From a virus, in the IMG/VR virus record IMGVR_UViG_3300035182_001904: a stretch of DNA of 64,000 bases. One strand, written 5' to 3'. A program made the translations under genes and the position numbers. Position 1 is the first letter of the stretch. Every line of letters starts with the position of its first letter. Shown here one piece after another: positions 23,114 through 46,141 of this stretch. The notes under the pieces are model-generated. The model was not told the DNA's origin, searched no databases, and saw nothing but the letters and a program-made list of their open reading frames with translations.

Positions 23114-23502
23114 CGCTTTCCTCCTGGGAAGTCAAGGGACTCCCCTTCCATGAGTTGACGTTCGGGTGTCGGAAACTTGCCTGGGTTGGTCGCGGCTGCT
23201 TTGGCGGAGGCCCGCAGGATTGCATCCATGTCGACAGGCGCCTGGCCTCCATCAACAACAGCGAGTGCGGGCGGTGCCGCCGCCGACTCTTGTCGCGCGT
23301 ACTCGTCGAGGGTGGTTACACCGCTCGAGGTGATCACCGGCGATGACGACGGCACATCATCGCGCGTCACCTCGACCGACACGACCGCCTTGTTCTTGGA
23401 GAACTTGATGTCGTCCTCCGAGGCTGAAATGCCTTGTTGGGCCAAGTCCTGTTTGATCAGGCGCGTGATGTCGGACGCCTCGTACGTGACTACAATCTTC
23501 AT
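23110..23502 (-). CDS. Hypothetical protein
   Basis: 130 aa, ATGA-coupled on both sides. Confidence 0.7.
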   Translation of the reverse strand: MKIVVTYEASDITRLIKQDLAQQGISASEDDIKFSKNKAVVSVEVTRDDVPSSSPVITSSGVTTLDEYARQESAAAPPALAVVDGGQAPVDMDAILRASAKAAATNPGKFPTPERQLMEGESLDFPGGKR

Positions 23503-25484
23503 TTGGCCCTCTCAGGTAGCATGGGCAAGGCATACGCCTTGATGACGGGGCGGTCCACCTTCTTGGGGTGGATGCACCCTAGCTGAAAGGGTTCAATCCC
23601 CTTCGCAAGACATATGATGTTTTTCGGACATAGCGCGCATTCAATCTTGTTCGTGAGCATCGAATCGACATCGATTTTGTGATCGAGCAAATGGGCTACC
23701 GCCAGCTCAAGCGTTCCCTGCCCGATCATCCTGTACACGGTAACCTTGTCGTTCTGTCCAATCCGATAGTTTCGGTCCAAGCATTGCGAGTACGAATTCA
23801 GCGAATACGGCAACGAGCTGTAGATCATGTACGTCGCCGAATTCAACGTGATGCCGAGGCCTGTGGTGACTTGGCCGATGTAGACGCGGACGGCAGGGGC
23901 GTCGTTGAACGCGTCGACGGAGGCCATCGGGTCTCGTGAACCGCCATCGACCCGTACGTACCCAATCTCTTCGGCGTTCAACCGCTCCTCGATCAGGTCC
24001 ATCTCAATGTGAAACGCGCACCAGATGATCACCTTGTGGTGCGGCGTTTCAAGAATCCCGTCGAGCAGCTCCATGATCGATTCGAGCTTGGGGTGCTCGT
24101 CAAACGTGATGGTCGTGGAGGGCCATGGCGTCGCGTCAACCAGGCACCGTGGGGTGCGTGGTTGAATCTGCCGCGCGACACAGGCGTCACGGTGTTCACA
24201 CGGCAAGCCTCCCCGGGCCGAGTCGCAGTAGAAGGGATCCTTCTCGCTCTTGATGAGGAAGCCTGACGTGATCTGCAAAAGCTTCATCAAGGCCGCCGCT
24301 CGGTGCGGCATCTCGATGGCAGAAAGTTGGTGCGGGAGAATGGGCTTCGCACCAATCTCCCCGGACCGAATCTGGATCCCTAGCTTACCCAGCACCTCGG
24401 GGTCGATGCCCATGTCGATGACGATCTTGTCGTACGCAACGGTCTGAGCGCGTGTAAGGGTATACTCTACGTCCACAAAGGAGCGTGTTGGCAGGTCCAA
24501 GCACTGCTCTTTGGTACGACGGATCGACAAGAAGGTCGTACGTGCATTGATGACGTCGAGATTCTTGTAACCAACCACGATAGGAGAGTTGGCGCCTCGC
24601 GTGACAACGAACGTTTTTTTGTACTTCCAGTACGTCTCGGGCATGAAGCAGTCGCCCAGGATTTTGTAGGGGCCGTACAGGTCGAGAGGATTCCCCTCGG
24701 TGGGGGACCCCGTCATGAGGATGCGGCGCATCGCCTTCTGTGCGATCTCATGCGTCGTCTTGGTGCGCTCGGACTGCCAGGTCTTCACGCCATGGCTTTC
24801 ATCGCAGACCAGAACGCCGTAAGGCAGCCGTTCTACGAGGAAATCCACTAAACTTCTCGCAGTGTCGTACGTCGAAAGAACCATGTCGGTGCCCTCGGCG
24901 GCAGCGCGTTCGATGATCTCGCGCTTCTGCTTGGGCGTTCCGACCAGCGCGGCCCACGTGAGCTGGCGGCCCGAGTGAAGGTCGATCTGCCGACCCCAGT
25001 TCCGCACGGTGACGCGCGGCCCGAGCACCAGGGCCGTGGCGCGGTTGCCGGTGTGGCGCAACAAACGCAGGAGATCGATCGCGATCTTCGACTTGCCGAG
25101 ACCAGGATCGTAGAACAACGCCGCCCGCATGTTGTAGAACACGTGGCAGAGTCCTTCAACCTGATGCTGGTATGGCGCCGTGACGTATTCAAATCCCGTG
25201 GGCAAGGTCAGCGCTTCCAAGCGTCGGCGCACATCCTCGAGCGCCTCGATGTGGCGTTGGGCCACGTCCGAGATCACCACGTCAACGTCGGAAGCCACTG
25301 CTTGAAGGTCCGCGATGACCTTGCTGGATGCAGGGAAGAACGCGGGGTACATCCACAAGGCCCGCGAAGCGTCCCATGTAGCGCCAAACACGCGACTGTA
25401 CGTAGCATTCTGTCCGTGAACCAGAAACACGGGCGTGCCGTTGCCCGCGCGTCCGACGCGGATCTCCATTCGGGGTCGACCCAT
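23499..25484 (-). CDS. SNF2-family helicase/ATPase
   Basis: YQHQ, DPGLGKS, CDESH, LMTGSP, RRTK and QCLDRNYRIGQ. Confidence 0.9.
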   Translation of the reverse strand: MGRPRMEIRVGRAGNGTPVFLVHGQNATYSRVFGATWDASRALWMYPAFFPASSKVIADLQAVASDVDVVISDVAQRHIEALEDVRRRLEALTLPTGFEYVTAPYQHQVEGLCHVFYNMRAALFYDPGLGKSKIAIDLLRLLRHTGNRATALVLGPRVTVRNWGRQIDLHSGRQLTWAALVGTPKQKREIIERAAAEGTDMVLSTYDTARSLVDFLVERLPYGVLVCDESHGVKTWQSERTKTTHEIAQKAMRRILMTGSPTEGNPLDLYGPYKILGDCFMPETYWKYKKTFVVTRGANSPIVVGYKNLDVINARTTFLSIRRTKEQCLDLPTRSFVDVEYTLTRAQTVAYDKIVIDMGIDPEVLGKLGIQIRSGEIGAKPILPHQLSAIEMPHRAAALMKLLQITSGFLIKSEKDPFYCDSARGGLPCEHRDACVARQIQPRTPRCLVDATPWPSTTITFDEHPKLESIMELLDGILETPHHKVIIWCAFHIEMDLIEERLNAEEIGYVRVDGGSRDPMASVDAFNDAPAVRVYIGQVTTGLGITLNSATYMIYSSLPYSLNSYSQCLDRNYRIGQNDKVTVYRMIGQGTLELAVAHLLDHKIDVDSMLTNKIECALCPKNIICLAKGIEPFQLGCIHPKKVDRPVIKAYALPMLPERAK

Positions 25485-25527: not shown

Positions 25528-27318
25528 ATGGCCACTGATGGAATGTTCGACCCGGGTATCTCCGACCTGTCGACGCAAAACACGTCGTCGCACGGAAGTC
25601 CGCTCTTCGATTTCCTCACGGCGTTCGCGCCACGGAAGCTCAAGGACCTCTTCCGACTGTGCGAGTACCTCTACTTCAACAGCGCGCAGATCTACGCCGC
25701 GCTCCAGAAGTTCTGCACGTACCCCGTCACCGACATCATCTACGAGACGCAGAACGAGGCGCTCAAGAACTACTACGAGGACCTCCACGACAAGACGCTG
25801 AAGACGAAGCGCGTCTTGATCCGCGCGGCCGTCGACAAGTTCGTTTACGGCAACGCGTTCTTCTCGATGTACGCGCCGTTCGTGCGCTTCCTGAAGTGTC
25901 CGCGCTGCCAGTCGCTGACGAACATCCACCAGGTCACCTACAAGTTCAACCTGAAGAAGCTCGCCTTCAACTACGCATGCAAAGGCTGCAACGTGAAGGT
26001 GGACATCGGTGAGAAGGACGTCATCGACCGCAAGATCACACGCAAGGACCGCATCTCGGTGATCCGTTGGGACCCGAAGTTGATGGACATCGACTACAAC
26101 CCCATCACCGGGCACAGCGAGTACTACTACACGATCCCCAAGGAGATTAAGGAACGCTGCGCCAAGGGGAACAAGCACCTCATCGACACGATGCCGATGG
26201 AGTTTTTGAAGACGATTCGCTCGGACAAGATCTTCAAGTTCGCGGAAGGTCAAGTCTTCCACATGCGCATGGACGCGCCCGCGGGCATCGAGGCTCAATG
26301 GGGCTTCCCGCCGCTCGCATCGACGATCAAGCTGTTCTTCTACGCGGCGGTGCTGCGCAAGGCGAACGAAGCGATCGCGCTCGACTACATCGTCCCGCTG
26401 CGCATCATCTCGCCGAAGCAGTCGTCGGCGAACGCCGATCCGATGACCACCATCTCGTTGGCCAAGTGGTCCGACGAGATGAAGACCAGCGTCAAGAAGT
26501 GGCGGCGAGATCCCCTCCACATCATGTGGTCACCGATCCCCGCGGAGGTCACGCACCTTGGTGGCCAAGCCCGTGCGCTCATGACGCTCGGCGAGGTCCA
26601 GGCTGCCGAAGACAACATCATCGCTGCAATGGGCCTGCCCAAGGAGTTCATCTACGGCGGCTTCTCTGCGATGGGCTCGGGCATCCAGCTTCGCGTGCTC
26701 GAGAACCAGCTCGTTCACCAAACGGGTGACCTCAACGACCTCCTGCAGTGGGTCACAGACAAGTCGGCCAAGCAGCTGGGGCGTGGCACGGTGACGTGTT
26801 CGCTCGCACCCTTCCGCTTCATCGATGACGTTCAGCAGAAGGCGCTGCTCCTGCAGCTCAACGGCGCCGACCCTTCGACGGGCCCGTGGATCTCCAAGCG
26901 GACCATGGGCGAGGCGTTCGACATCGACCCGTCCGACGAGCGCAAGTGGCGCATGCAGGAAGCAATCGACGACGCGCGAACTGCACAGGAGCTGCAGGTC
27001 GAGATGCAGAAGCGTCAGAACAATCTGGGCTCACAGGCACGAGCCCAAGCGCAGATGGGTCAGCAGGGTCTCTCCTACGACCAGCAGGCGGTGATCGCGC
27101 AGGCAGATCAGGTGATCCAGCAGCTGATGGGCCTGGACCCCGGGAGCCGGCAATCGCAGATGCACGCGCTGCAGACCGAGGACATGGTGATGTACGCGGT
27201 CGTCAAGGAACGCATGCATGACCAGACCACTCAGCAGAACCAACAGGCGATCGCGGCAGCCCGTCAAGGCGGCGATCCTTCCGGCGGTGGCGCACCACCC
27301 GCAGCGCCAGGTATGTAA
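25528..27318 (+). CDS. Probable portal protein
   Basis: 596 aa, first gene of the virion block. Portal-like segments (RWDPKLMDI, WGFPP, IIAAMGLPKEFIYG, QLRVLEN) and a Q-rich tail. Assignment rests on position and resemblance. Confidence 0.65.
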   Translation: MATDGMFDPGISDLSTQNTSSHGSPLFDFLTAFAPRKLKDLFRLCEYLYFNSAQIYAALQKFCTYPVTDIIYETQNEALKNYYEDLHDKTLKTKRVLIRAAVDKFVYGNAFFSMYAPFVRFLKCPRCQSLTNIHQVTYKFNLKKLAFNYACKGCNVKVDIGEKDVIDRKITRKDRISVIRWDPKLMDIDYNPITGHSEYYYTIPKEIKERCAKGNKHLIDTMPMEFLKTIRSDKIFKFAEGQVFHMRMDAPAGIEAQWGFPPLASTIKLFFYAAVLRKANEAIALDYIVPLRIISPKQSSANADPMTTISLAKWSDEMKTSVKKWRRDPLHIMWSPIPAEVTHLGGQARALMTLGEVQAAEDNIIAAMGLPKEFIYGGFSAMGSGIQLRVLENQLVHQTGDLNDLLQWVTDKSAKQLGRGTVTCSLAPFRFIDDVQQKALLLQLNGADPSTGPWISKRTMGEAFDIDPSDERKWRMQEAIDDARTAQELQVEMQKRQNNLGSQARAQAQMGQQGLSYDQQAVIAQADQVIQQLMGLDPGSRQSQMHALQTEDMVMYAVVKERMHDQTTQQNQQAIAAARQGGDPSGGGAPPAAPGM

Positions 27319-27326
27319 GATAACCC

Positions 27327-27710
27327 ATGCCGCAAGACTCAGAAGACTTCGCCGACGTCATCGAAAAGGCCCAGAAGGTCAGCAACGACCTGGGCAGCTT
27401 GTTCGGTGCGCAGAACGGACCGGGGCGTGTTGCGTTCGAACAGCGCGGCAACCGCGGCGGCCCCGAGCTGGACTACGAAGCCCACTCCGAGGTCTTCGCG
27501 CTGCCCGCGGATCGCGACAGCTACGAAGACGTCATGAACCAGGTGCTGCGTGGCGAAGCCATCATGCGCTACGAGGACCGGACCTTCTCGAAAGAGGGCG
27601 ACTTCCTGGTGGCCTTGGTCTACCTGACGCCCCGTGCACGTCCAGCTCCCGTGAACAACCAAGACGCAGGCGACGCCGAACCTGCTGAACGACCGCGACG
27701 GCTGCCCTAA
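27327..27710 (+). CDS. Hypothetical protein
   Basis: 127-aa ORF between the portal and RNAP genes. Confidence 0.7.
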   Translation: MPQDSEDFADVIEKAQKVSNDLGSLFGAQNGPGRVAFEQRGNRGGPELDYEAHSEVFALPADRDSYEDVMNQVLRGEAIMRYEDRTFSKEGDFLVALVYLTPRARPAPVNNQDAGDAEPAERPRRLP

Positions 27711-27727: not shown

Positions 27728-30700
27728 ATGCTGCCAAATCTACGACCGATACTCGAGGACGCGGCAACGCGGCGCGAGATGATCCGCAAGAAGGTCGTCG
27801 AAGGCCTCGAGCAGTCGTTCCCGCTCAAGGCCGGCAAGCACACGGTCGAGGTATCGAACGTGCGCGTCGACCCGCAGGACTACTCGTCCCGGGACCAGAA
27901 GCGTGCCGTGCTCGAAGGCAAGACCTTGTCGGAACGTGTGCGCGGTGACGTCACCGTCAAGGACGCGGCGGGCGGCGTAGTCAACCACGCCAAGGACTTC
28001 ACGCTGCTGCAACTGCCGTACTTCACGCCACGGCACACCTTCATCCTCGATGGCACGGAGTACTCCGTCTCGAACCAGCTGAGGACGAAGCCAGGCGCGT
28101 ACGTACGTCGCCGTGGCAACGACGAGCTGGAGGCGACGTTCAACCTGTCGAAGGGCGCGAACTTCCGCGTGTCGATGGAGCCCGAGAAGGGTCTCCTCTA
28201 CATGCAGCCATCGCACACGACCACGAAGATCCCGCTGCATCCAATCCTCCGCGCGCTTGGGATGCCTCACCAGGACATCGCGGCGAGCTGGGGCCCTGAG
28301 ATCGCGGGCATGAATCGCGACGCTTGGAAGAACCCGGACAAGCACGTCAGCAAGCTCTACGAGACGCTCGTGCATCCGGCCAAGCAGACCGCGACCACGA
28401 CGGAAGAGAAATCCCGCGTGCTGCGCGAGTACTTCGACCAGACCTCGATGGACCCCGAGGTCACGACCCACACGCTCGGCTACCCGTACGACAAGGCGTC
28501 GGCGTCTGCAATCCTGGCGGCGTCCAAGAAGCTGCTCGACGTACACAAGGCAGCCGCCGACGTTGACGATCGGGACTCGCTGGCGTTCAAGACGTTCCAC
28601 TCGGCGGACGACTTCATCAAGGAACGCGTGCAGCTCGAGGCTCGGGCGATGCGTGCGAAGCTTGGCTGGAAGCTCGACGCGAGCCACGGGGACCTGAAGA
28701 AGGCGTTGCCGGCAGGCCCGTTCACGCGATCGATGCACGGGCTCCTGGTGGGGTCATCGCTCTCGGCAGTCCCGATGCAGATCAACCCGATGGAGTTGCT
28801 CGACGAAGCGTCACGCGTCACGATGCTCGGCGAGGGTGCGATCGCGTCCGAGCGCGCCATCCCGCTCGAGGCTCGCGACGTCCATCCGACGCACTTCGGA
28901 ATCCTTGACCCTGCAAGGACCCCAGAGTGCTACGACGCCATGACCGAGGTCTTCACGTCACGCGGGTGGAAGCGGTGGCCGGATGTCACTGCGAACGACT
29001 GGCTCGCATGTCGTGTCGATGAACGTCTCGAATTCCACCGCGCGACCAACCTCACGGCACAGCCGTATGAGGGCCTCATGTATGGCCTAGAGACGGGCAA
29101 AATCAATTACCTGGTAACGCCCAACCACCGCGTCTTGTGTAAGCCGCTCGAAACGCGCGGACTCCAACACTGGCGCATCAACCGAGCGGACGAGGTACAC
29201 GGCAAACCGCGTACATTCGACACGGGACACCTGCCGTACGTTGGGGAGAGTGTTGATACGTTTCAGCTCCCCCGGGCCGCCGGCGGCAACGCGGTAAAGA
29301 ATGTTGGCCCGATTGCCATGACGGACTGGGCGTCCTTTATGGGATGGTATCTGTCCGAAGGGTGTTTCAACTTCACCGAAAAAACATTCACGTATCACGT
29401 CCTGATCTCACAGGACGTGAAAAAGAATCCACAAAACTGCGAGATTATCGAAGCACTGCTCCGGCGTATGCCGTTTGCATGGTCACAACGCGGGGGTGAC
29501 ACGTATGTCATCGGCGTTAAGCAGCTAGCGGCATATGTGCAGCAGTTCGGGCACGCGGGGGATAAATACATCCCGGAATACTTTTTTCAGGCGTCGTACG
29601 AAGTACGAGAGAATCTATTCGAAGCTCTCCTGTTGGGAGACGGTCGAAGGTGTAAGGTTCCGTTGCCAGGTGCAACACACGACCGAAATGTACTCTGTAC
29701 TACCAGCGCACGCTTGGCCGTCGATTTTGACCGCCTCGCGATTTCCCTGGGACGCCCAACACGCACCGCGCGCTACGTCGACAAGCGTGAAGAGCGGTAT
29801 CTGGACACGTACGAAGTACGTCCGTTGAAACAACGTTTTCGACAATCGCGGACACGTGAGGAGCAGCGGGGCTACTACACCGAGCACTATCGCGGCAACG
29901 TGTACTGCGCTGAAGTCCCCGGGGGACTGTTGTACGTGCGGCGGAACGGCAGCGTCCCGATTTGGTCGGGCAACTCGTTCAAGGTCGGCGTCGACCTTCG
30001 TGCCACGATCGGTGCGCGGCGCGACGACAAGGGCAACCTCTACGCGCCGGTCTACGACGTCGCTGCGAAGAAGTCGACGTACCTCAAGGCCGGTGACATG
30101 GCGAAGTCGATCATCGCGTTCCCTGGTGAACACCTGGGACCGGGGAAGATCGTCGATGCGATGGCGCATGGCGTCGTATCGCGCGTGTCGTCGGATCGCG
30201 TGACCCACCAACTGGAGCATGTCGCAGACCAGTATGGGCCCACGTCGAACCTCCTGCCGCTGCTCTACGGCATCCAGGCGAACCGCGTGCTCATGGCGAG
30301 CAAGCACCAGGGCCAAGCACTGCCGTTGACGCATCGTGAGGCGCCGCTCGTCCAGGTTGCATCGTGGAAGCCAGGGACGTCGGTCGAACGGGAGATGGTC
30401 AAGCTGATCGTCCCGACCGCACGACAGGCCGGCACGATCACGAAGATCGATGACGACTGGATCCACATCGAGCCGGACGCGAAGACGGCCGCGCTCACGA
30501 CGAAGCTCCACTACGACACCAACCTTCCGCTCGCCGCCAAGACGATGCTGCACAACACGCTGACCGTGAAGGTCGGCGACCGTGTCGAGAAGGACCAGCT
30601 CCTCGCTGACTCGAACTTCACCAAGGACGGCACGCTCGCGTTGGGCACGAACCTGCGGGTGGCATACATGCCGTACCGCGGCCTCAACACCAACGACGGC

Positions 30701-33136
30701 ATCGTCGTCTCGCAGGGCGCAGCGGACAAGCTGACGAGCGAACACATGTACCAGCACGCGCTTTCGCGTGAAGGGGACGTGCAGCTCGGACGTGAGAAGC
30801 ACCGGACCTACTTCGGCAGCCGCTACACCAAGGACCAGTACGACAAGCTCGACGAAGACGGCGTTGTCAAGCCGGGGGTCACTCTTCACAAGGGCGACCT
30901 GATCGCTGCGGGCATCCGCGAGAACAAGGTGACGGGTGACGCACTCCTGCTGGGTAAGCTGTCCAAGTCGCTGGTCAAGCCCTACGAAGAAGTGGTCGAG
31001 ACTTGGACGCACGATCGACCCGGCATTGTCGTAGACGTGGCGAAGACCGCCCGACAGGCAGCTGCGTCGATCCGCACCCAGGAGACACTGCAGATCGGCG
31101 ACAAGCTGTGCAACCGCTTTGGCAACAAAGGCGTGATCGCGAAGATCATCCCTGACCACCAGATGATCCAGGATGCGCAGGGGCGCCCTGTCGATCTTCT
31201 CTTCACGTCGGCGGGTATCGTCTCGCGCATCAACCCAGCGCAGGTCATCGAGACGGTGCTTGGAAAGGTTGCCGAAAAGACGGGTAAGCCGATCGTCATC
31301 CCGCAATACATGCCAGGCCGTGACAACGTCGCCTTCGCAAAGAAGTTGCTCGAGGAACACGGTCTCTCGGACAAAGAGACGGTCCTTGACCCTATCACGG
31401 GCAAGAAGGTTCCCGACGTGTTGGTCGGCAAGAGCTACATCCTGAAGCTCTTCAAGACCACAGATTCCAACTGGGCAGCGCACGGCGCCGAGAAGTACGA
31501 CTACAACCAACAACCGGCGCGTGGTGGTGACGAAGGTGCCAAGGGCATCGGCAAGATGGAATTCGATGGACTCGTCGCGCACAACGCACGCAACGTGCTG
31601 CGTGAAGCGGCGTCCATCAAGAGCCAGCGCAACGACGAGTTCTGGCGCGCGATCCAACTCGGGCTGCCGACGCCTTCGCCCAAGACGCCATTCGCCTACG
31701 ACAAGCTGCAGAGCATGCTCACGGGCGCCGGCGTCAAGGTGACGAAGACCGGCTCACGCTTGGCGCTTGGTCCGCTCACCGACGCGGACGTCAAGTCGAT
31801 GTCCTCAGGAGCGCTCAAGGACCCGAGCAAGTTGATCCGCGCGAAGGACCTACGCCCCGAGACCGATGGCCTCTTCGACCCAGGGATCACCGGCGGCATG
31901 TCGGGCACGAAGTGGTCGCACGTCGACCTGCACGAGCCGATCGTCAACCCCGTGTTTGAGGAACCCGTGCGACGCCTTCTCGGACTGACACAGAAGGAGT
32001 TCACGGAGCGTGTGGGCAAGGGCGGGAGCTGGTTCAAGACGGCGCTCGGCGAGATCAACATCGATGACAAGTTGAAGGATCTGCTGGCGCAATCGAAGAA
32101 GGCGCGTGGACCCGCACTCGACGGCGTGGTGAAGCAGATCAAGTACCTCGAGGCGTTAAAGGACCGCGACCTCAAGCCTGCGGACGCCTACGTCATCTCG
32201 AAGGTGCCGGTGACGCCGCCGGTGATTCGTCCGATCCTGCCGCTCAAGGACGGGCGTCTGCAGGTCAGCGACGCGAACCTGCTCTACAAGGACGCGTTCC
32301 TCGCGAACGATCAGCTCAAGTCATCCGCCAAGTCGTTGCCGTCATCCGAGTTGCCCGGTCCACGGCAACACCTGTACGACGCGGTGAGCGCGCTCTACGG
32401 CGTCGGCGACCCTGTGAGCCCTGGCGCCGAGAAGCGCGGTGCGAAGGGGTACCTCGCGGCCATCACGGGCACGCGACCAGGCAGCGGCTTCTTCCAGTCG
32501 CGCCTCATGAAGCGGCAGCAAGACGTGAGCGGTCGCGCGACCATCGCACCTGACCCAACATTGTCGATGGACGAGATCGGCGTGCCCGAAGGGATGCTCT
32601 GGGGCATGTACAGTAAGTTCGTGATCGGACGCTTGGTCCGACGCGGCTATACAGCGACCGATGCGCAGAAGATGGTGGATGACCGCACGCCCGTCGCGCG
32701 GGAAGAGCTGGTCAACGAATCACGTGAACGTCCGGTCATGGTGAATCGTGCACCGTCACTTCACCGCTTCAACATCGTGGGTGCATACCCCAAGATTGTT
32801 GAGGGCAAGACGCTCAAGCTCAATCCGTTCGCCGAGAAGGGCATGAATGCGGACTACGACGGCGACGCCCTTCAAATCCATGCCCCGGTGACACCGGGCG
32901 GTGTCGAGGACGTCAAGAAGATGACGCTCTCGCACATGATCTTCGCCGACAAGCGCCCAGGCGTTCTGAACATCGCGCCCGACATGGAGGCTGTGCTGGG
33001 CTTGCACCGTGCGACGCAGGCGGCCAGCGGCAAGAAGACGCGGCACTACGACTCCCAGGAGGAGGCGATGGCGGCCTACCACCGGGGCGACATCGCGCTC
33101 AACGATCCCATCGAAATCAGGGCCAAGCGCCTATAA
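27728..33136 (+). CDS. rpoB: Multisubunit-type RNA polymerase: beta fused to the N-terminal half of beta', containing an intein
   Basis: beta motifs HPTHFG..TPE, NRVLMASKHQGQA, GDKLCNRFGNKG and PVDLL..SRIN. beta' motifs PETDGLF, RPILPL, KRQQDVSGRATI, NRAPSLHR and NADYDGD (32846-32866). Confidence 0.93.
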   Translation: MLPNLRPILEDAATRREMIRKKVVEGLEQSFPLKAGKHTVEVSNVRVDPQDYSSRDQKRAVLEGKTLSERVRGDVTVKDAAGGVVNHAKDFTLLQLPYFTPRHTFILDGTEYSVSNQLRTKPGAYVRRRGNDELEATFNLSKGANFRVSMEPEKGLLYMQPSHTTTKIPLHPILRALGMPHQDIAASWGPEIAGMNRDAWKNPDKHVSKLYETLVHPAKQTATTTEEKSRVLREYFDQTSMDPEVTTHTLGYPYDKASASAILAASKKLLDVHKAAADVDDRDSLAFKTFHSADDFIKERVQLEARAMRAKLGWKLDASHGDLKKALPAGPFTRSMHGLLVGSSLSAVPMQINPMELLDEASRVTMLGEGAIASERAIPLEARDVHPTHFGILDPARTPECYDAMTEVFTSRGWKRWPDVTANDWLACRVDERLEFHRATNLTAQPYEGLMYGLETGKINYLVTPNHRVLCKPLETRGLQHWRINRADEVHGKPRTFDTGHLPYVGESVDTFQLPRAAGGNAVKNVGPIAMTDWASFMGWYLSEGCFNFTEKTFTYHVLISQDVKKNPQNCEIIEALLRRMPFAWSQRGGDTYVIGVKQLAAYVQQFGHAGDKYIPEYFFQASYEVRENLFEALLLGDGRRCKVPLPGATHDRNVLCTTSARLAVDFDRLAISLGRPTRTARYVDKREERYLDTYEVRPLKQRFRQSRTREEQRGYYTEHYRGNVYCAEVPGGLLYVRRNGSVPIWSGNSFKVGVDLRATIGARRDDKGNLYAPVYDVAAKKSTYLKAGDMAKSIIAFPGEHLGPGKIVDAMAHGVVSRVSSDRVTHQLEHVADQYGPTSNLLPLLYGIQANRVLMASKHQGQALPLTHREAPLVQVASWKPGTSVEREMVKLIVPTARQAGTITKIDDDWIHIEPDAKTAALTTKLHYDTNLPLAAKTMLHNTLTVKVGDRVEKDQLLADSNFTKDGTLALGTNLRVAYMPYRGLNTNDGIVVSQGAADKLTSEHMYQHALSREGDVQLGREKHRTYFGSRYTKDQYDKLDEDGVVKPGVTLHKGDLIAAGIRENKVTGDALLLGKLSKSLVKPYEEVVETWTHDRPGIVVDVAKTARQAAASIRTQETLQIGDKLCNRFGNKGVIAKIIPDHQMIQDAQGRPVDLLFTSAGIVSRINPAQVIETVLGKVAEKTGKPIVIPQYMPGRDNVAFAKKLLEEHGLSDKETVLDPITGKKVPDVLVGKSYILKLFKTTDSNWAAHGAEKYDYNQQPARGGDEGAKGIGKMEFDGLVAHNARNVLREAASIKSQRNDEFWRAIQLGLPTPSPKTPFAYDKLQSMLTGAGVKVTKTGSRLALGPLTDADVKSMSSGALKDPSKLIRAKDLRPETDGLFDPGITGGMSGTKWSHVDLHEPIVNPVFEEPVRRLLGLTQKEFTERVGKGGSWFKTALGEINIDDKLKDLLAQSKKARGPALDGVVKQIKYLEALKDRDLKPADAYVISKVPVTPPVIRPILPLKDGRLQVSDANLLYKDAFLANDQLKSSAKSLPSSELPGPRQHLYDAVSALYGVGDPVSPGAEKRGAKGYLAAITGTRPGSGFFQSRLMKRQQDVSGRATIAPDPTLSMDEIGVPEGMLWGMYSKFVIGRLVRRGYTATDAQKMVDDRTPVAREELVNESRERPVMVNRAPSLHRFNIVGAYPKIVEGKTLKLNPFAEKGMNADYDGDALQIHAPVTPGGVEDVKKMTLSHMIFADKRPGVLNIAPDMEAVLGLHRATQAASGKKTRHYDSQEEAMAAYHRGDIALNDPIEIRAKRL
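28928..29974 (+). mobile_element. Intein with LAGLIDADG homing endonuclease in RNAP beta (349 aa)
   Basis: TPE|CYDAMTEV ... LLYVRRNG..WSGN|S. LAGLIDADG blocks FMGWYLSEG and LLLGDG. Lower GC than the flanks. Confidence 0.92.
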
Positions 33137-33137
33137 T
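33130..33137 (+). promoter_or_regulatory. CCTATAAT -10-like element overlapping the RNAP stop codon
   Basis: TATAAT at 33132-33137, GTG at 33143 (5-nt gap, no SD). Confidence 0.6.
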
Positions 33138-33142
33138 AAAGC

Positions 33143-33691
33143 GTGCCCTTCGAGTCCCCGGCCGCCGCAGCCCACTACCTTGCCGCGATGATCGACGGTG
33201 AAGGAACGGTTGCGGTGCTCACCTCTCGATCGCGCAATCGCGTGGTCAAGGTTTGCAACACCGACTGGGACATCATCACGGCTACCGTCGAAAGCTGCGA
33301 GACTCTCGGCATTCGATGTTGCGTTGTCGAACGGCCACGTACAGGCCGTCCAAAACACTGGAAACAAGTTTGGGACGTCGCCATCCAAGATCGCGAAGCC
33401 CTCATGCGACTATTGACGCAAGTTCCGCTGCGGTCTCTTCGAAAACAGCAGCGACTCAAAACTTTGATTCAATCCTACCGAACGTCCAAACGGCCTCCGT
33501 TCGAGGATCTCCAACGAATGTACGTCGACGAAAAAATGTCGTACACGGACATCATGCGAACGACAGGCGCTCGATCAACGGCAACGGTAGCGTACTGGCC
33601 CCGGACGTCAGGGATCGTCGCGCGCACCCGTTCAGTTGCGGGCCACTTGACGTGGCAGACGAAGCGAGGAGTTCTCCATGCCGTTCCGTAG
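33143..33691 (+). CDS. Free-standing LAGLIDADG homing endonuclease with C-terminal HTH-like region
   Basis: YLAAMIDGEG motif at the N-terminus. Lower GC. Confidence 0.8.
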   Translation: MPFESPAAAAHYLAAMIDGEGTVAVLTSRSRNRVVKVCNTDWDIITATVESCETLGIRCCVVERPRTGRPKHWKQVWDVAIQDREALMRLLTQVPLRSLRKQQRLKTLIQSYRTSKRPPFEDLQRMYVDEKMSYTDIMRTTGARSTATVAYWPRTSGIVARTRSVAGHLTWQTKRGVLHAVP

Positions 33692-34139
33692 CGAGGCTCA
33701 ACGTCGCTACCTGTTCTCGCAACACCCGGATGTCGCCCGCGAGTTTGCGAACGCGACGCCCAAGGGCAAGAAGCTGCCCGAGCATGTCAAGAAGTCGCAC
33801 GTGCGCGGCATCGCAGACGCGCTCGAGCAGTTCGGTTTCAAGCAAGCAGCAGAGGAGCTGCGCTTGAAGATCCCAAGCCGCACGTTCCACGGCTACGATG
33901 CAGCTCACAAGACGGAAGCGAACCGCGGCTCGAAGAAGGCGGATGTGGACGGCACCGCAGACAACCTCGCCGACGTGCTCAAGCAGATCGACGTGAACGT
34001 GTCGCCTGATGTACAGCTTGCAGCCCGCGATCCACTCGACCGTACTACTGCGTGGGGATCTCCCTCGAACCTTGCGGGCGGCGACTCGGCGAGCCGGCTC
34101 AGTGACATGGGACAGAACACTGCTTTTGGAGGCGTCTGA
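33678..34139 (+). CDS. Hypothetical virion-module protein (MPFRSEAQRR N-terminal domain + shared motif)
   Basis: GAGGAG RBS. Contains HVRGIADALEQFGFKQAA. Confidence 0.75.
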   Translation: MPFRSEAQRRYLFSQHPDVAREFANATPKGKKLPEHVKKSHVRGIADALEQFGFKQAAEELRLKIPSRTFHGYDAAHKTEANRGSKKADVDGTADNLADVLKQIDVNVSPDVQLAARDPLDRTTAWGSPSNLAGGDSASRLSDMGQNTAFGGV

Positions 34140-34864
34140 TGTCACTCATGCCCCGTGAAGAGACGAGAACCTCTGAAAACTCGATCGGCCACATCATCGA
34201 TCGAGCCACAGGTAAAGCCCCCAAACCTACAGCGGGTTCCCTCATCGACTCTTTGTTGAGCGGGGGAAAAATGGCGATGCCGATGCAAGGGCAACTGACG
34301 CCAGACCAGTTAGCAGTGAACGAAGAACTGAAGGGGCTCGGGGGACGCCCCAACATGCACGGAGGGATGGACATGCCTGAGTCTTTCCACGGAGACCTCA
34401 TGTCGACATTCGAACGCCACAACATGCACCGTGCCCCCCTCGGGAATCCCAAGATGGCCGGGGTTTATCGTGTGGGTGTTGCCGACGCACTCGTGCGTTT
34501 CAAGATCGCAGCCCCTGCTCCCCTGCCTGCCCCTGCTGCGGGTCCTAGCTTCGCGTCCAAGGTCAAGGACTTCGGAGCCGGTCAGTGGGGCGCCGCGAAA
34601 GACTTCGCCGCGAATGTACGCGGTGGCATGGGTGGAAAGGCGAACCCGAACTTCATCACAGGCGCCGTACCCGAGCACAGCATGGACATGGCGCGTGCAT
34701 CACAACGCGGTGCTGCAGTCGGCAACCTCAAGACCCTTGCACCGACGCTGCTCGCGGGCGGAGGTCTCTACATGTTGCACCAGCACAACCAGGCCGAGAA
34801 AGAGGAAGAGGCCCGGCAGCACGCGATGATGGGCGGCGGCATGTCGATGGGTGGAGGATACTGA
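34139..34864 (+). CDS. Gly/Met-rich hypothetical protein with shared motif
   Basis: Contains YRVGVADALVRFKIAA. TGATG-coupled. Confidence 0.7.
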   Translation: MSLMPREETRTSENSIGHIIDRATGKAPKPTAGSLIDSLLSGGKMAMPMQGQLTPDQLAVNEELKGLGGRPNMHGGMDMPESFHGDLMSTFERHNMHRAPLGNPKMAGVYRVGVADALVRFKIAAPAPLPAPAAGPSFASKVKDFGAGQWGAAKDFAANVRGGMGGKANPNFITGAVPEHSMDMARASQRGAAVGNLKTLAPTLLAGGGLYMLHQHNQAEKEEEARQHAMMGGGMSMGGGY

Positions 34865-34871
34865 CGTGCCG

Positions 34872-35645
34872 ATGAACCCTCTACTAGCGCGCAGCCTCAT
34901 GGGCGCGGCGATCGGCACAGCCGGCGGAGCCTTGACCGCTGAAAAAGGTCATCGTGAAGAAGGTGCGCTGCAAGGCGCAGCGATCGGAGGCGCCGGCGGT
35001 GCCCTTTACCACCTTGGTAAGCAGGCACCCACCGCAGGACCGCGTCCTCCGGGGCCAAGTGCTCCTGGTCCAAGCGCAGGTCCGCGTCCAGCAGGTCCAA
35101 GTGCTCCTGGTCCAAGCGCAGGTCCGCGTCCAGCAGGTCCGTCCTGGGAAGACAGAATGCGACAACAGTGGCGGGCGCAAGATGAGGCCCGTGCGTCCGC
35201 ATCACGGCAGGCACGACAGAGCGCCAAAGAAGAGGCGTACAAACACACGCAACAAAGCCAGTCCGCACAAGACGGTTTCAAATACCGTCAACAAGCGGAG
35301 GACAAGCACTGGGGTGCGCAGAACGAAGATGTTTTCAACAACTGGCGTAAGGCGCGACAGGGCGCTGGTGCGGGTCCAAGTGCTGTTATAGGACAATCAG
35401 CTCCACGCGGAGCGCCAAGTGGCGGACTTCCGTCGTGGATGAGCGGAGCGCAAACACAGGCGGAGGCGAAGAGTCGCTTCAGAGAACAAGCAATGAATAT
35501 GCATCCAGACCGTGGCGGAAACACGGCCGACATGCAGTCATTGAATGCACAGTGGGCCGCTGCACGGAAACACCCTGACTTCTCGAGCATGAAAGAAGCG
35601 TGGTGGATGGGCAAAGCGGCTGCGTTACAACATTTCGGTCTCTAA
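34872..35645 (+). CDS. Glycine-zipper / Pro-rich / J-domain-like protein
   Basis: N-terminal GAAIG hairpin and GPSAPGPSAGPRPA repeats. AKSRFREQAMNMHPDRGG..MQSLNAQW is a compact J-domain with HPD. C-terminus is WWMGKAAALQHFGL. Confidence 0.7.
   Translation: MNPLLARSLMGAAIGTAGGALTAEKGHREEGALQGAAIGGAGGALYHLGKQAPTAGPRPPGPSAPGPSAGPRPAGPSAPGPSAGPRPAGPSWEDRMRQQWRAQDEARASASRQARQSAKEEAYKHTQQSQSAQDGFKYRQQAEDKHWGAQNEDVFNNWRKARQGAGAGPSAVIGQSAPRGAPSGGLPSWMSGAQTQAEAKSRFREQAMNMHPDRGGNTADMQSLNAQWAAARKHPDFSSMKEAWWMGKAAALQHFGL
35055..35140. repeat. Perfect 42-bp tandem duplication (in frame)
   Basis: ccaagtgctcctggtccaagcgcaggtccgcgtccagcaggt at 35055 and 35097. Confidence 0.95.
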
Positions 35646-35650
35646 CCAAC

Positions 35651-37432
35651 ATGGCGACAACGCTCGGACAGCACCTCGTCGACTCCATCCTCCCATCGAA
35701 GTGGCGAGGACAGGGGGCGCTCACCAAGGGGAACCTGAACAAGGTCCTCCTCGGTGTCGCAAAAGAGGACCCGAGCAAGTACCCCGACGTCGTGACCAAG
35801 CTCAAGCGTCTCGGTGACGAGGTCGCAACGCTCGACGGCATCTCCGTCGGCCTCGACGACATCGCGCCCCGTGTTGCTGAACGCGACGCTGCCTTGAAGC
35901 CGCACGTCGAAGCCTTTCGAAAGGCGACGACCAACGCGGACAAGGTCAAGACGCTCGTGGGCGGACAGAATGCGATGCTCATGCTGGCACGCAACCACCC
36001 AGGCACGATGGGCGAGATGGTTCGCGCCGGCGGTCGCGGCAATGCTGCACAACTCATGCGCACCGTGGGCGCACCCGTCTTCGCCGAAGACTCCAAGGGC
36101 AAGGTCATTCCGTGGCTCGTCGACAAGAGCTTCTCCGAAGGGCTCAAGCCTGCGGATGCGTGGATCATGGGCGGTCAGGCGCGTGTCAACGCGGTGGTCT
36201 CGAACATCTCGGTTGTCGAGCCCGGTGACCTTGCGAAGATCCTCGTCAACAACATGGGCGACCAGCTCGTGACGACGGTGGACTGCGGCACCAAGAACGG
36301 CATCGCGATGTTGCCGACCGACGCACACCTCATCGACCGCTACCAGGCGGGCACGAACAAGCTGATCACGCCGCAGTACGCGTCTCACCTTGCCAAAGAA
36401 GGCAAGGAGGTCATCGTCCGTTCTCCGATGACCTGCGAAGCTGCGCACGGCGTCTGTCAGCGCTGCCAAGGCCTGTCGTCTTCGGGTGGCATGCATTCGA
36501 TCGGAACGAACGTTGGCGTTCGCGCGGCTCAAGCGCTCGCCGAGCCGCTCACGCAGTTCGCCCTCAACGCGAAGCACGGCGGGCGCGTCGTCGGTGTTGA
36601 CGACGAGAAGCGGCTCGAGGGCATCAAAGGCGTGCGAGCCTTGCTCGAGATTCCGACATCGTTCGCACACAAGGCGGTACTTGCTGACCGCGACGGTTCC
36701 ATCACGAAGATCGACAAGGCTCCGCAGGGCGGTCACTACGTCTTCGTCGGCGACGGTAGCCACTACGTGCCTCCCGCACACAAGGTCGTCGTGGGCATCG
36801 GGCAATCGATGTATGCAGGGGACTTGCTCTCCGATGGCGTACCCAAGCCTGACGAGATCGTTCAACACAAAGGCCTCGGTGAAGGTCGACGCTACCTCGT
36901 CGACGCGCTCTCCGATGTCTACAAGCGCGCAGGCTCCGAGGTCGACAAGCGCCACCTCGAGACGCTCGCCAAGTCCGTGCTCAACCACGTCCAGATCATT
37001 GATCCCGGTCCCGACGACGCATTCATCAAGGGTGACGTCGTCGACTACAATCGGTTCCATGCGTCCCTGGCCGCATCCAAGAAACGCCTCCCGACGACAG
37101 ACGCGATCGGCGAGACGCTCGCGGACGGCATCCTCCACCACACGGCGGGTACTGTCGTGACGCAGCCAATCGCAGACCAGCTCGTACGCCACGGCGTGAC
37201 GTCGGTGATGACGTCCAGCCAGGGGCCGCGTGCACTGCCGTTCATGCGCCCGGCGTCGCGCACACCTCTTCTCAATCCGGATTGGATGGCACGCCTCGCA
37301 CACCGCTACCTCAAGGAGTCATTGCTAACAGGCATCCACCGCGGCGATGTCTCCAACCTACACGGGGCGTCCCCTGTTCCAGCGTACGCTGCAGGCACAG
37401 AGTTTGGCCTTGGTGAAGAGGGGCAATACTGA
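35651..37432 (+). CDS. rpoC: RNA polymerase beta' C-terminal half (RpoC2-like)
   Basis: KLKRLG..ATLDGISVGLDDI, bridge helix EPGDLAKILV, Zn site C..RSPMTC..GVCQRC, trigger loop AAQALAEPLTQFALNAKHGG, and KRHLETL. ATG at 35651. Confidence 0.92.
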   Translation: MATTLGQHLVDSILPSKWRGQGALTKGNLNKVLLGVAKEDPSKYPDVVTKLKRLGDEVATLDGISVGLDDIAPRVAERDAALKPHVEAFRKATTNADKVKTLVGGQNAMLMLARNHPGTMGEMVRAGGRGNAAQLMRTVGAPVFAEDSKGKVIPWLVDKSFSEGLKPADAWIMGGQARVNAVVSNISVVEPGDLAKILVNNMGDQLVTTVDCGTKNGIAMLPTDAHLIDRYQAGTNKLITPQYASHLAKEGKEVIVRSPMTCEAAHGVCQRCQGLSSSGGMHSIGTNVGVRAAQALAEPLTQFALNAKHGGRVVGVDDEKRLEGIKGVRALLEIPTSFAHKAVLADRDGSITKIDKAPQGGHYVFVGDGSHYVPPAHKVVVGIGQSMYAGDLLSDGVPKPDEIVQHKGLGEGRRYLVDALSDVYKRAGSEVDKRHLETLAKSVLNHVQIIDPGPDDAFIKGDVVDYNRFHASLAASKKRLPTTDAIGETLADGILHHTAGTVVTQPIADQLVRHGVTSVMTSSQGPRALPFMRPASRTPLLNPDWMARLAHRYLKESLLTGIHRGDVSNLHGASPVPAYAAGTEFGLGEEGQY

Positions 37433-37878
37433 TGATCGCTCGAGCACATGCAAAGGGTATCGAAGATGCCCTTGCGCGCTTCCAAGTCAAAGACGCGGGC
37501 ATCATGGAAGGCATCAAGCAGACCTTCATCGGACAGCCTGGGCGTGCTTTCGTGGAAGGACCGCGTACGTTCTCTCCGGGTGGAATGCTTTCCACCAAGA
37601 ACGTATGGTGGCCCAGCGTCAAGGGCCAGCCGTTGAACTGGATTGGACGTGCTGGCACGATCGCAGCACCGCTCATGGCACTCTCTGCCATGCGGTCAAA
37701 CCCGCAAGAGGGCCACCTATCAAACGCGCTCGGTGCGCTTGGTGGAATCGCTGGGAGCGCATATGGTTTCCCGGCGCTTGGCATGCTTGGCGGACCTCTT
37801 CTCGCACAAGCGGGCGCACGAGCTGGACGTGGCCTCGGACATCTACTCGGCAGTAAACCGAAGGACCTCTATCAATGA
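37432..37878 (+). CDS. Shared-motif protein with glycine-zipper C-terminus
   Basis: MIARAHAKGIEDALARFQVKDA... Confidence 0.75.
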   Translation: MIARAHAKGIEDALARFQVKDAGIMEGIKQTFIGQPGRAFVEGPRTFSPGGMLSTKNVWWPSVKGQPLNWIGRAGTIAAPLMALSAMRSNPQEGHLSNALGALGGIAGSAYGFPALGMLGGPLLAQAGARAGRGLGHLLGSKPKDLYQ

Positions 37879-38183: not shown

Positions 38184-39503
38184 ATGTTCAAGCATGCGTA
38201 CGTCCGTGGCATCCAGACCGCGTTGGTCAACAGCGGCGCAGCCGCGTTCCCCGACGAGACCACCGCGGCGAAGGTCGCGGACTACATCGCTGACCGTGTC
38301 GACATCGACCCTCTGAAGGGTGTGTCGCGCGAGGCGACCCACAAGATCGGGACGGACCTGGTCGCAGCCTCCGACTGGATCAAGCAGCAGCCCGGCTTCA
38401 AGGCGGCGAGCTTCAACAAGCTCGCGACGTGGGAAGACGTCGCGCAGCTCGCGGATCGCAACGCGACCCAGCTGATGACGAAGGCCGCCGAGGGCTCGAC
38501 CATCGAGGGTGGCGACAAGGGGAACACCCAAGCCGAGGCGCCCGCGGGCGAGACCAAGATGGACGCCTCGCAGCGTCCTCCCGGCTATGCCGAGGACAGC
38601 CGCGGCAAGACCGAGATCGACACCCGGCCGGGCACGGTCGGCAAGGAAGAGGAGCAGCCGAACAAGCCCAAGGAGACCGACTCCAAGGACAACTCGGTGC
38701 AGGAGCACTCGCGCACCGCGTCGCTCGCTGACCTCTTCCGCAAGTCGGCCGAGGGCTCGACGATCATGGGTGGCGACAAGGGCAACACCGCCATGTCGTC
38801 GGCCGAGGCCAAGATGGACGCGGCACAACGTCCCGCAGGCTACGCCGTCCTGCCCACGCAGGGTGCACTCGGCGCGATGATGAACCTCGTCGGCGGCCCC
38901 GCGGTCGTCGGCAAGGAGACCGCGCAGCCGAACAAGCCCGGCGAGTCGCCGAGCGGTTCGAACTCGGTGACCCAGCAGTCCGCCAAGGCGGCTGCCGAGG
39001 ACCCGTACATCGCGCTCTTCAAGAAGGTCGCTGCCGAGGTGCACGAGTACCTCCCGGGCGGTCTCCACGAGAACGCCAAGATCGCCGCGGTCCGCGCCTG
39101 CATGGGCATGACGACCGAGGAGAAGGCGTACTACCTCCGCGGCCTGCAGAAGGAGGCGGCGGATGCGTCGACGGGTTCTTCCAGCCTGCCGCCGGGCTCG
39201 CGCGGTGATCGCTACCGTGAGCACAACCCGGACGCGACGCACTCGCGGCCCGGCGCCTACGATGGCCGCTCTGGCAACCAGGGCACCAAGCAGGCCGACG
39301 ACCTCCCGCCCTTCATGAAGAAGGACGAGAAGGACGAGAAGAAGGACGACGACAAGGAGAAGGACAAGGGCGGCATGCCCGACTTCATCCGCGAGAAGAT
39401 CGAGGGCAAGAAGCACGAGGAAGGCGAGTCGAAGAAGGAAGAGCACAAGGAGGCCTCGCTTCGCGACTTCTTCCGTCGCATCGACGCGGCACAGCGCGCG
39501 TGA
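38184..39503 (+). CDS. Head/core-type protein with shared motif and internal 87-aa duplication
   Basis: MFKHAYVRGIQTAL. Two KxAEGSTIxGGDKGNT..KMDA.QRP.GYA..VGKE..QPNKP repeats and many K-x-A sites. Confidence 0.8.
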   Translation: MFKHAYVRGIQTALVNSGAAAFPDETTAAKVADYIADRVDIDPLKGVSREATHKIGTDLVAASDWIKQQPGFKAASFNKLATWEDVAQLADRNATQLMTKAAEGSTIEGGDKGNTQAEAPAGETKMDASQRPPGYAEDSRGKTEIDTRPGTVGKEEEQPNKPKETDSKDNSVQEHSRTASLADLFRKSAEGSTIMGGDKGNTAMSSAEAKMDAAQRPAGYAVLPTQGALGAMMNLVGGPAVVGKETAQPNKPGESPSGSNSVTQQSAKAAAEDPYIALFKKVAAEVHEYLPGGLHENAKIAAVRACMGMTTEEKAYYLRGLQKEAADASTGSSSLPPGSRGDRYREHNPDATHSRPGAYDGRSGNQGTKQADDLPPFMKKDEKDEKKDDDKEKDKGGMPDFIREKIEGKKHEEGESKKEEHKEASLRDFFRRIDAAQRA

Positions 39504-39667
39504 GCCTTCCGCGCCACATCCGCGAAATGGGGCGTCTCGTCGTCGAAGAGAAGCTTGCTGAGATCCTGAACCCGACCCTCGGCTCGCTCAAGGCGCAGAA
39601 GACGAAGCAGCTGGGCGGTCTTCCTGACGCGAATCTCTCCAAAGTCGTCAGCTTCCCCAGTTCGTAG
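39500..39667 (+). CDS. Small protein (55 aa, not in ORF track)
   Basis: GTGA-coupled. MSLPRHIREMGRLVVEEKLAEIL...FPSS fills the gap exactly. Confidence 0.5.
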   Translation: MSLPRHIREMGRLVVEEKLAEILNPTLGSLKAQKTKQLGGLPDANLSKVVSFPSS

Positions 39668-39679
39668 ACGAGGTCCCAT

Positions 39680-46139: not shown

Positions 46140-46141
46140 TC

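Follow-up and report, generated by a model that had tools for sequence, protein, structure and literature searches.

In Helicobacter and Wolbachia, the β and β′ subunits of RNA polymerase (RNAP) are fused, the whole of β′ lies within the same chain and the enzyme works with α2 and ω. In cyanobacteria and plastids, β′ is cut into two genes, rpoC1 and rpoC2, after the catalytic loop; the cyanobacterial enzyme has an unfused β, possesses α and ω, and carries a huge SI3 insert in RpoC2. The multisubunit RNAPs of phages are otherwise known in detail only as the divergent phiKZ and AR9 enzymes, which consist of 4-5 chains, with β and β′ each split, and which are encoded as two paralogous sets per genome without a sigma-70-family factor. 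Reviews of jumbo phages describe only these two types, without sigma (PMC7824862, PMC13282480). Further, the mReC lineage of uncultured tailed phages encodes compact, cellular-like β and β′ that branch apart from those of cells, always as a separate whole β (~1000-1400 amino acids, aa) and β′ (~900-1010 aa), and no fusion or split is mentioned (Weinheimer and Aylward, 2020, PMC7481178). Here we analyzed the RNAP genes of a 64,000-nucleotide (nt) stretch of viral DNA (hereafter, the window) within the 137.5-kb IMG/VR virus record IMGVR_UViG_3300035182_001904, which is estimated to be 74% complete. In this window, β is fused to the N-terminal part of β′, and the remainder of β′ is encoded separately as a second chain. 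Among phage multisubunit RNAPs, this arrangement is a new variant with respect to the literature searched, where we found no prior description of a fused-then-split architecture (most subscription journals were outside this scope).

The first chain is encoded at positions 27728-33136 (+ strand) by an open reading frame (ORF) of 1802 codons without a stop, which corresponds to an in-frame fusion of RpoB with the first 40% of RpoC. We assigned domains using Pfam, NCBIfam and PHROGs profiles together with a protein atlas comparison, and mapped residues to E. coli numbering using a MAFFT alignment with E. coli RpoB and RpoC plus relatives. Rpb2 domains 2/3/6 were matched at aa 137-1264, followed by Rpb1 domains 1/2 at aa 1460-1732. 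The top NCBIfam model was the Helicobacter-type β/β′ fusion PRK09603 (E 1e-101), followed by rpoB, rpoC and rpoC1_cyan (gamma), and the β part was recognized by PF00562 (E 2e-45), PF04565 and the rpoB models. Thus, the ORF, Pfam and NCBIfam results agree with an earlier sequence-only reading of the window, according to which β motifs run without a stop into β′ motifs. That reading had put the junction near 31735-31770, where the alignment indeed located it: β ends with ..GAGVKV at aa 1338, a five-residue linker, TKTGS (31742-31756, +), connects the β C terminus (E. coli 1337) to β′ (E. coli ~14-19), and β′ begins with RLALGPLTDADV at nt 31757, which corresponds to E. coli β′ 14-19. The β′-N part (31757-33133, +) ends at E. 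coli β′ 555. The catalytic NADYDGD motif is at aa 1707 (nt 32846-32866), aligned to E. coli β′ 458-464, and the chain stops 95 aa further.

Chain 1 retains in β the flap-tip helix and the lysines of the double-psi-barrel motif GDK...GNKG (GDKLCNRFGNKGV, aligned to E. coli 1063-1075), and in β′-N the lid, clamp helices and rudder as well as NADYDGD. Compared with E. coli, it lacks β segments 229-254, 321-377, 390-417 (SI1 region), 938-1049 (SI2) and 1127-1180, and β′ segments 68-99 (the four-Cys zinc-binding domain, of which no Cys is left) and 144-176. The positions aligned to E. coli D516, H526 and S531 in the rifampicin pocket are Q, A and M, and insensitivity to rifampicin is therefore predicted from the alignment.

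The chain 1 precursor is interrupted by a predicted 349-aa intein with LAGLIDADG-type motifs (28928-29974, +; aa 401-749), situated in ETPE|G, a β motif conserved universally, where it separates the counterparts of E. coli E565 and G566. Its boundaries read TPE|C...GN|S, so that the first residue is Cys, the last two are Gly-Asn and the +1 residue is Ser; a TPNH block-B-like motif and two LAGLIDADG-like motifs were read from the sequence. It resembles inteins in mycobacteriophage methylase genes and phrog_85, and no Pfam intein model reached E 0.01 against the whole chain 1 protein. Judged by its precise in-frame position in a conserved motif and its Cys, Asn and Ser ends, the insert is an intein. 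Removal of aa 401-749 left 1453 aa, exactly the length that had been estimated after splicing, and this product aligned gap-free and with 97.9% identity to its nearest intein-free homologue, P0123 (1453 aa).

The second chain, β′-C, is encoded at 35651-37432 (+) and matches Rpb1 domain 5. The longest frame opens at GTG 35600 (610 aa), and an ATG at 35651 (MATTLG) yields 593 aa; we took the product to be 593 aa because the homologues in more than 100 clusters, with lengths of 591-601 aa, share the start at ATG 35651. The bridge helix lies at about nt 36149-36256 and the trigger loop at about nt 36512-36649, with its helices, His and 'EPLTQ..KH'; the SI3 insert of the trigger loop is wholly absent. 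The second Zn site consists of C212, C262, C269 and C272, and the four Cys were invariant in 40 sequences. Chain 2 matched solved bacterial β′ from ~570-660 to ~1100-1390, with E down to 1e-36, and in the alignment of bacterial β′ it covered E. coli T572 to the end, including the secondary-channel and jaw parts. Further, its AlphaFold model (predicted local distance difference test score, 85.5) matched bacterial β′ C-halves over nearly the full length (Foldseek E 2e-31, TM 0.7). Homologue starts, alignment and predicted fold thus uphold a second chain of 593 aa with bridge helix and trigger loop. The parts that identify β′ are therefore divided between the two products, with the catalytic loop in chain 1 and the bridge helix and trigger loop in chain 2, and the two chains together are predicted to carry out DNA-dependent RNA synthesis. 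They total 2046 aa, compared with 2749 aa for E. coli β plus β′, in keeping with the compactness that had been proposed, and their identity to solved bacterial β/β′ is ~20-30%.

We located the break between the two chains at E. coli β′ 555|572. Chain 1 ends at 555, and residue 3 of chain 2 aligned to T572, such that the chain 2 start 'TTLGQHLV..LP' corresponds to E. coli 'TTVGRAIL..VP'; in rpoC_TIGR profile coordinates, the end of chain 1 falls at ~538 and the start of chain 2 at 548. For the cyanobacterial break, we relied on NCBIfam profile coordinates and one PDB match, Synechocystis RpoC2. The rpoC2_cyan profile begins at E. coli 590-592 (E. coli 592 being position 3), the gamma profile covers residues up to E. 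coli 574 or beyond, and residue 14 of Synechocystis RpoC2 aligned to residue 41 of the 610-aa chain 2 frame. The sequence-only reading had placed the split at the rpoC1/rpoC2-like position. The region is the same, but alignment and profiles put the phage break upstream, by ~20-35 residues, of that in cyanobacteria and plastids, and the 'TTxGxxL..LP' segment is on the C-terminal chain here and on gamma in cyanobacteria. Judged from these alignments, the phage break and the cyanobacterial/plastid break are of independent origin. The phage enzyme resembles Helicobacter and Wolbachia RpoBC in the in-frame joining of the β C terminus to the β′ N terminus. However, those cellular fusions are ~2840-2890 aa by model length, whereas the phage enzyme is 30% smaller and its β′ is cut again: chain 1 stops at β′ 555, and only the single-chain relatives described below have the whole of β′ in the fusion.

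The two-chain layout is widespread. The fused chain was found in at least 120 clusters at 90% identity (120 listed, of 1159 matches), typically with 1448-1475 aa and larger where inteins or GNAT domains are present. Chain 2 was likewise found in at least 120 such clusters (120 listed, of 627 matches), with 591-601 aa being typical and on contigs of up to 185-204 kb. When representatives at 50% identity were searched exhaustively (E<1e-30), the lineage comprised 1117 clusters. A search for stand-alone β′-N proteins (252-804 aa) returned mostly fragments on short contigs and a few on longer ones, for example P0415 (533 aa, on a 45-kb contig). The same two chains also occur in isolates, namely Salmonella phage Arash (OQ632216; gp206, 1525 aa, and gp216, 606 aa) and Vibrio phages D69, D148 and D181, with 31-37% identity to the chains of the window. 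In the Arash-type layout, β is fused to β′ 1-~555, and β′ from ~570 to the end is encoded by a downstream gene within the portal-capsid block, exactly as in the window. These isolates share the architecture, the gene order and the lack of α and ω; Arash and D69 differ from the window in having no intein at this chain 1 site and in the identity and number of genes between the chains. A two-chain polymerase of β-β′N plus β′C, as first proposed from the letters of the window, is therefore corroborated by the same layout in more than 100 clusters and in isolates. The lineage is already present in databases with cultured members, whose chains are labelled simply 'beta' and 'beta-prime'; the Arash report uses these annotations and does not mention fusion or split (PMC10585845). 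The genomes of relatives are ~190 kb, and contigs that share the architecture are 185-204 kb. Megablast of the RNAP region against INPHARED phages gave no match, and relatives there were recognized at the protein level only.

Not all relatives are split. Among the 150 best representatives at 50% identity, 21 were single chains of ~2010-2090 aa, or up to 2876 aa with inteins, containing β, β′-N and β′-C in order; one of these was on a phage-like contig. Single-chain relatives such as P0275 (contig L006) resemble the enzyme of the window in being compact, with 30-34% identity in β′-C, and are colinear with it through the break point, but they form one polypeptide and are basal to the split clade on the tree. 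At the break point they continue without interruption as VRVAGKNTSAGRAL; the window instead shows '..IEIRAKRL(stop)' followed by '(M)ATTLGQHL..', and nothing has been lost. We built trees of the β′-C region with FastTree (155 rows) and IQ-TREE (LG+C20 PMSF, 78 rows), using eight bacterial β′ from four phyla as the outgroup. Both trees separated all phage sequences from the eight bacterial β′ with a support of 100, and the phage sequences did not nest among the sampled cellular ones. Together with the low identity to bacterial subunits, this placement bears out the view that the enzyme belongs to a distinct RNAP lineage. The phiKZ and AR9 enzymes, which are likewise phage-encoded β/β′-like RNAPs without α or ω, of which one set is packaged in the virion (PMC7824862, PMC13282480), were far more divergent, with tblastn E values of 1e-7 to 1e-13 and partial alignments.

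Within the phage clade, the split forms constituted one clade in both trees (support of 98-99; SH-aLRT 98 in IQ-TREE), which contained an all-split core comprising the window, Arash and D69, and the one-chain forms fell outside the split clade when the tree was rooted on bacteria. Because split forms nest as a supported clade inside one-chain forms under this root, the two-chain layout likely arose by fission of a one-chain ancestor, which is the better-supported direction and not a proven one. Fission would have occurred at a surface loop of a β-β′ chain of ~2050 aa, and insertion of a homing endonuclease or a cargo cassette is a possible cause. A homing endonuclease lies directly after chain 1 in the window and in the related contigs L007 and L093, and not in L091, which suggests a 'genes in pieces' mechanism. 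Such a mechanism, acting through homing endonucleases, is familiar for other phage genes.

The α2 and ω subunits that belong to a bacterial-type core were lacking. Profiles for α (PF01000) and ω (PF01192) found no match in the 137.5-kb record, nor in Arash and D69, whose genomes are complete, and all 14 control genomes were matched; very divergent analogues are possible. The sequence-only reading had noted the lack of both genes in the window, and the profile search extends it to the whole record and to the two isolates. Each genome possessed one set of RNAP genes.

We consider it highly probable that the two genes specify the catalytic core of a bacterial-type RNAP peculiar to phages, which consists of two polypeptides, is packaged, is guided by sigma and was split by fission. 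Chain 1, after intein splicing, would provide all of β, the five-residue linker and β′ ~14-555 (E. coli numbering), and chain 2 would provide β′ from ~570 to the end. The covalent β-β′ link would replace the α2 assembly scaffold, and promoters would be selected by the sigma-70-type factors that the phage itself encodes, namely the one in the window and the gp10-like one elsewhere in the genome. As suggested by homology with Arash and by the position between portal and capsid genes, the enzyme would be packaged in the capsid, injected, and start transcription independently of the host polymerase. As each genome has just one set of RNAP genes, newly synthesized copies of this enzyme would then serve the later stages.

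Several observations weigh against this reading, including those on sigma use and packaging given below with the alternatives that they favor. The β motif 'NFEDS' is NTNDG in the window (chain 1 aa ~985-995), with E. coli E813 replaced by Asn, whereas ED is kept in Arash and D69. The absence of α and ω leans partly on relatives, because the record is 74% complete. Further, the basal nodes of the trees are weak (80-82), one full fusion, P0391, falls in the sister group of the all-split core, and the outgroup of eight bacterial β′ from four phyla is narrow, the search for bacterial loci having yielded mostly Proteobacteria; the root and the direction from fusion to split are for these reasons insecure.

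A sigma-70-family factor of 263 aa with regions 2 and 4 is encoded at 18967-19758 (+; PF04542, 37 bits, and PF04545, 32 bits, both over the cut-offs); comparison with the orthologues of L093 and L094, which are 261 aa long, fixed its start. It is the syntenic orthologue of Arash gp196, and in relatives the corresponding gene likewise precedes chain 1 by ~8-9 kb. The orthologue of Arash gp10, a second sigma, is encoded outside the window at G000:C1:26772-27446 (34% identity, E 3e-34). From sequence we infer that sigma is used by the phage core rather than by the host core, which leaves room for an alternative in which the phage core does not use sigma-70 at all. It would instead rely on a non-sigma specificity subunit as in phiKZ and AR9, perhaps the product of a conserved small gene, and the sigma factors would only hijack the host RNAP. 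The known phage multisubunit RNAPs do lack sigma-70 homologues (PMC7824862, PMC13282480), conserved small genes flank both chains here, and the deleted β′ Zn finger contacts sigma and promoter DNA in bacteria. However, the clamp helices and flap tip, which are the two main docking sites of sigma, align well with those of E. coli, the sigma genes keep their place relative to the RNAP block throughout the lineage, and the Arash sigma gp10 accompanied the RNAP chains in virion preparations. We therefore regard a sigma-independent core as unlikely, although it deserves a hearing. A predicted complex of the window sigma (3-sequence alignment) with β′-N (aa 1344-1802; 25-sequence alignment), run without controls, scored 0.00 and was weighed neither way. 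A scan for sigma-70 promoters and terminators at 25-40 kb gave results no better than shuffled sequences.

Virion-packaged RNAPs are exemplified by those of N4, phiKZ (vRNAP) and crAss (gp66). In the present lineage, the case for packaging is built on gene position and on mass spectrometry of Arash virions (PMC10585845). Chain 1 (gp206) was the top protein, with 128 unique peptides, 3516 spectra and 100% sequence coverage. Chain 2 (gp216) yielded 40 unique peptides and 1210 spectra, portal gp204 yielded 32 and 877, and sigma gp10 yielded 24 and 467, respectively; the capsid protein gave 1333 spectra, and both RNAP chains were among the five most abundant proteins. The small protein gp205 and sigma gp196 were not among the detected proteins (PMC10585845). 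Alternatively, the polymerase is a real enzyme but not a virion protein, acting as a middle or late polymerase while early genes are transcribed by the host RNAP with phage sigma factors, and its position in the head operon reflects late co-expression. This alternative draws on the fact that the proteomic support comes from Arash, a phage whose chains are 31-37% identical to those of the window, and not from the window's own phage. In the Arash preparation, 116 proteins were detected, among them ribonucleotide reductases, RNA ligases and helicases; carry-over of abundant infection proteins is considered possible by the authors (PMC10585845). Further, neither chain has the 'A[HY]..G...AL..F' motif of neighboring small proteins (see below), and phage sigma factors classically act on the host core. 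On the other hand, the spectra of Arash gp206 exceed those of capsid and portal, gp216 contributes a further 1210, and the placement between portal and capsid is conserved across members that are only 31-37% identical. Because the one RNAP set lies in the head/late block, host-independent early transcription would need packaging. A polymerase confined to the infected cell thus appears quite improbable to us. Since the Arash preparation may include carry-over, packaging in the virion of the window's phage is a well-motivated inference and not a finding.

We give virtually no credence to the idea that the fusion and split are an assembly or frame error, a pseudogene or a recent capture of a host rpoBC, which draws on the origin of the window from a single contig and is refuted by the recurrence of the architecture across hundreds of independent assemblies as well as sequenced isolates, the full peptide coverage of Arash gp206, the low identity to bacterial β/β′ with shared lineage-specific deletions, and the monophyly of the phage clade.

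A more far-reaching version of the preferred reading, to which we attach no more belief than disbelief, is that the lineage carries in its capsids a self-contained machine: a sigma-70-dependent holoenzyme free of α and ω, with a core of one polypeptide (~2050 aa) in basal members and of two in the present clade. If true, this would be the smallest natural β/β′-type core, and a natural experiment in which covalent β-β′ linkage substitutes for α2. It would also mean that β′ tolerates re-splitting near, but independently of, the cyanobacterial/plastid site, driven by insertion of homing endonucleases or cargo. Set beside the 4-5-chain enzymes without sigma, a lineage of more than 1000 clusters at 50% identity, with cultured members, is much closer to the bacterial enzyme and has one or two polypeptides and probably its own sigma. 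It could therefore serve as a tractable minimal model in which to study the structure and assembly of a cellular-type polymerase, and be of use in synthetic biology, where one or two genes might provide orthogonal sigma-dependent transcription. It would further allow a test of whether α and ω become dispensable once β and β′ are tethered, and would provide a documented case of gene fission beside homing endonucleases in an essential enzyme. For this lineage, one would further predict infection that is independent of host RNAP and is not blocked by rifampicin, with the aligned rifampicin-pocket residues given above as the ground for the latter. The novelty of this particular window is reduced, as isolates with the same architecture are already public.

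The RNAP genes lie in a conserved block. A portal protein of 596 aa is encoded at 25528-27318 (+) and shares 29-31% identity, along its whole length, with D69_0259 and with Arash gp204, which bears a portal annotation; in the protein atlas, all ten of its best Pfam-bearing matches were of one family or clan (portal families; top score 0.93). A SNF2-family helicase (23499-25484, - strand; PF00176, PF00271) is the conserved divergent neighbor of the portal-RNAP block and is found at the same position in L007, L091, L093, L094, Arash and D69. Between portal and chain 1 is a small conserved ORF of 127 aa (27327-27710, +; 94% identity in L091, 53% in L007), and a gene of 92-141 aa occupied this slot in all relatives examined. 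At the far end of the head block, the major capsid protein is encoded at 51680-52618 (+) and is 41% identical to Arash gp226, annotated as major capsid protein. The RNAP had been described as lying between portal and protease. The identity to Arash gp204 and D69_0259 supports the portal neighbor, but protease families gave no match in the scanned ORFs between 37432 and 51652 (37432-37878, 38184-46711, 49603-50175 and 51188-51652), and the block runs from the portal at 25528 to the capsid at 51680. The ORFs at 37432, 38184 and 42825-46711 matched nothing in PHROGs, Pfam or the protein atlas. In every relative examined, the gene order was kept: sigma, SNF2 helicase on the opposite strand, portal, small ORF, chain 1, small genes, chain 2 and conserved genes as far as the capsid. 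The capsid protein of mReC phages matches PF07068 (T4-type), unlike the record containing the window, in which PF07068 found no match; the same search matched none of the control genomes either.

Four ORFs lie between 33136 and 35651, in agreement with the four genes said to separate the chains. The first, 7 nt after the chain 1 stop, encodes a free-standing LAGLIDADG/HNH-like homing endonuclease (33143-33691, +; weak matches to PF05204, PF14528 and phrog_5046). It is followed by a conserved 153-aa gene with an 'H.RGI.DAL..F' motif (33678-34139, +; 87% identity in L091, 64% in L007) and by a 241-aa gene (34139-34864, +), the C-terminal part of which is homologous to a 97-125-aa gene of relatives. 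The fourth gene encodes 264 aa (34851-35645, +; weak Gly-zipper Pfam matches) and is absent from the closest relatives, L091 and L007. Its product has an N-terminal glycine zipper, a Pro-rich, duplicated GPRPxGPSAPGPSA repeat and a J-domain-like 'HPD' segment, FREQAMNMHPDRGG; no match of this ORF to the Pfam DnaJ model passed E 0.01. L091, which is 96-97% identical, is without the intein, the endonuclease and the 264-aa gene and has two genes between the chains. Other relatives have two to four, of which the first in L007 and L093 encodes an HNH or LAGLIDADG endonuclease; Arash has nine and D69 two. Because gene number and content vary among relatives, the gap between the chains is a variable cargo site.

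A short motif, approximately [AS][HYW]..G(I/K)..AL..F, is found repeatedly near the RNAP genes, in small ORFs that are unrelated in other respects, at positions 33795, 35598, 37444, 37887 and 54165 of the window (+). It is situated in the 153-aa gene, at the C terminus of the 264-aa gene and at the N termini of the 37432, 37875 and 54150 ORFs, and in neither RNAP chain, and it might be a capsid-targeting or docking tag. With regard to the hosts, short contigs with chain 2 homologues were found in metagenome-assembled genomes labelled Pseudomonadota (L011, JBPOIP010000077.1; 63% identity by tblastn) and Pseudolabrys sp. (P0017; 80% identity). These labels, together with a G+C content of 62%, give a weak hint of proteobacterial hosts.

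Inteins and other domains also occur in the RNAP chains of other members of the lineage. An intein at the same site as in the window was present in two other fused-chain clusters, inserts of ~350 aa occurred elsewhere in other chain 1 homologues, near the GDK barrel motif, and the chain 2 homologue P0039 (976 aa) contains a LAGLIDADG domain. A GNAT acetyltransferase domain was found within chain 1 of P0127, P0145, P0172, P0200, P0205 and P0208, at about E. coli β 736-745, and at the C terminus of the chain 2 homologue P0245. Another chain 2 homologue, P0278 (1016 aa), has a C-terminal 2',5'-RNA-ligase/Acb1-like phosphodiesterase domain, suggesting that the packaged polymerase serves as a carrier for counter-defence or modifying enzymes. 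Further, a second intein of the window (Hint plus LAGLIDADG; PF05203, PF14890 and PF14528; aa ~176-540) was found in a 945-aa protein of the structural block, encoded at 46708-49545 (+) and homologous to Arash gp222.

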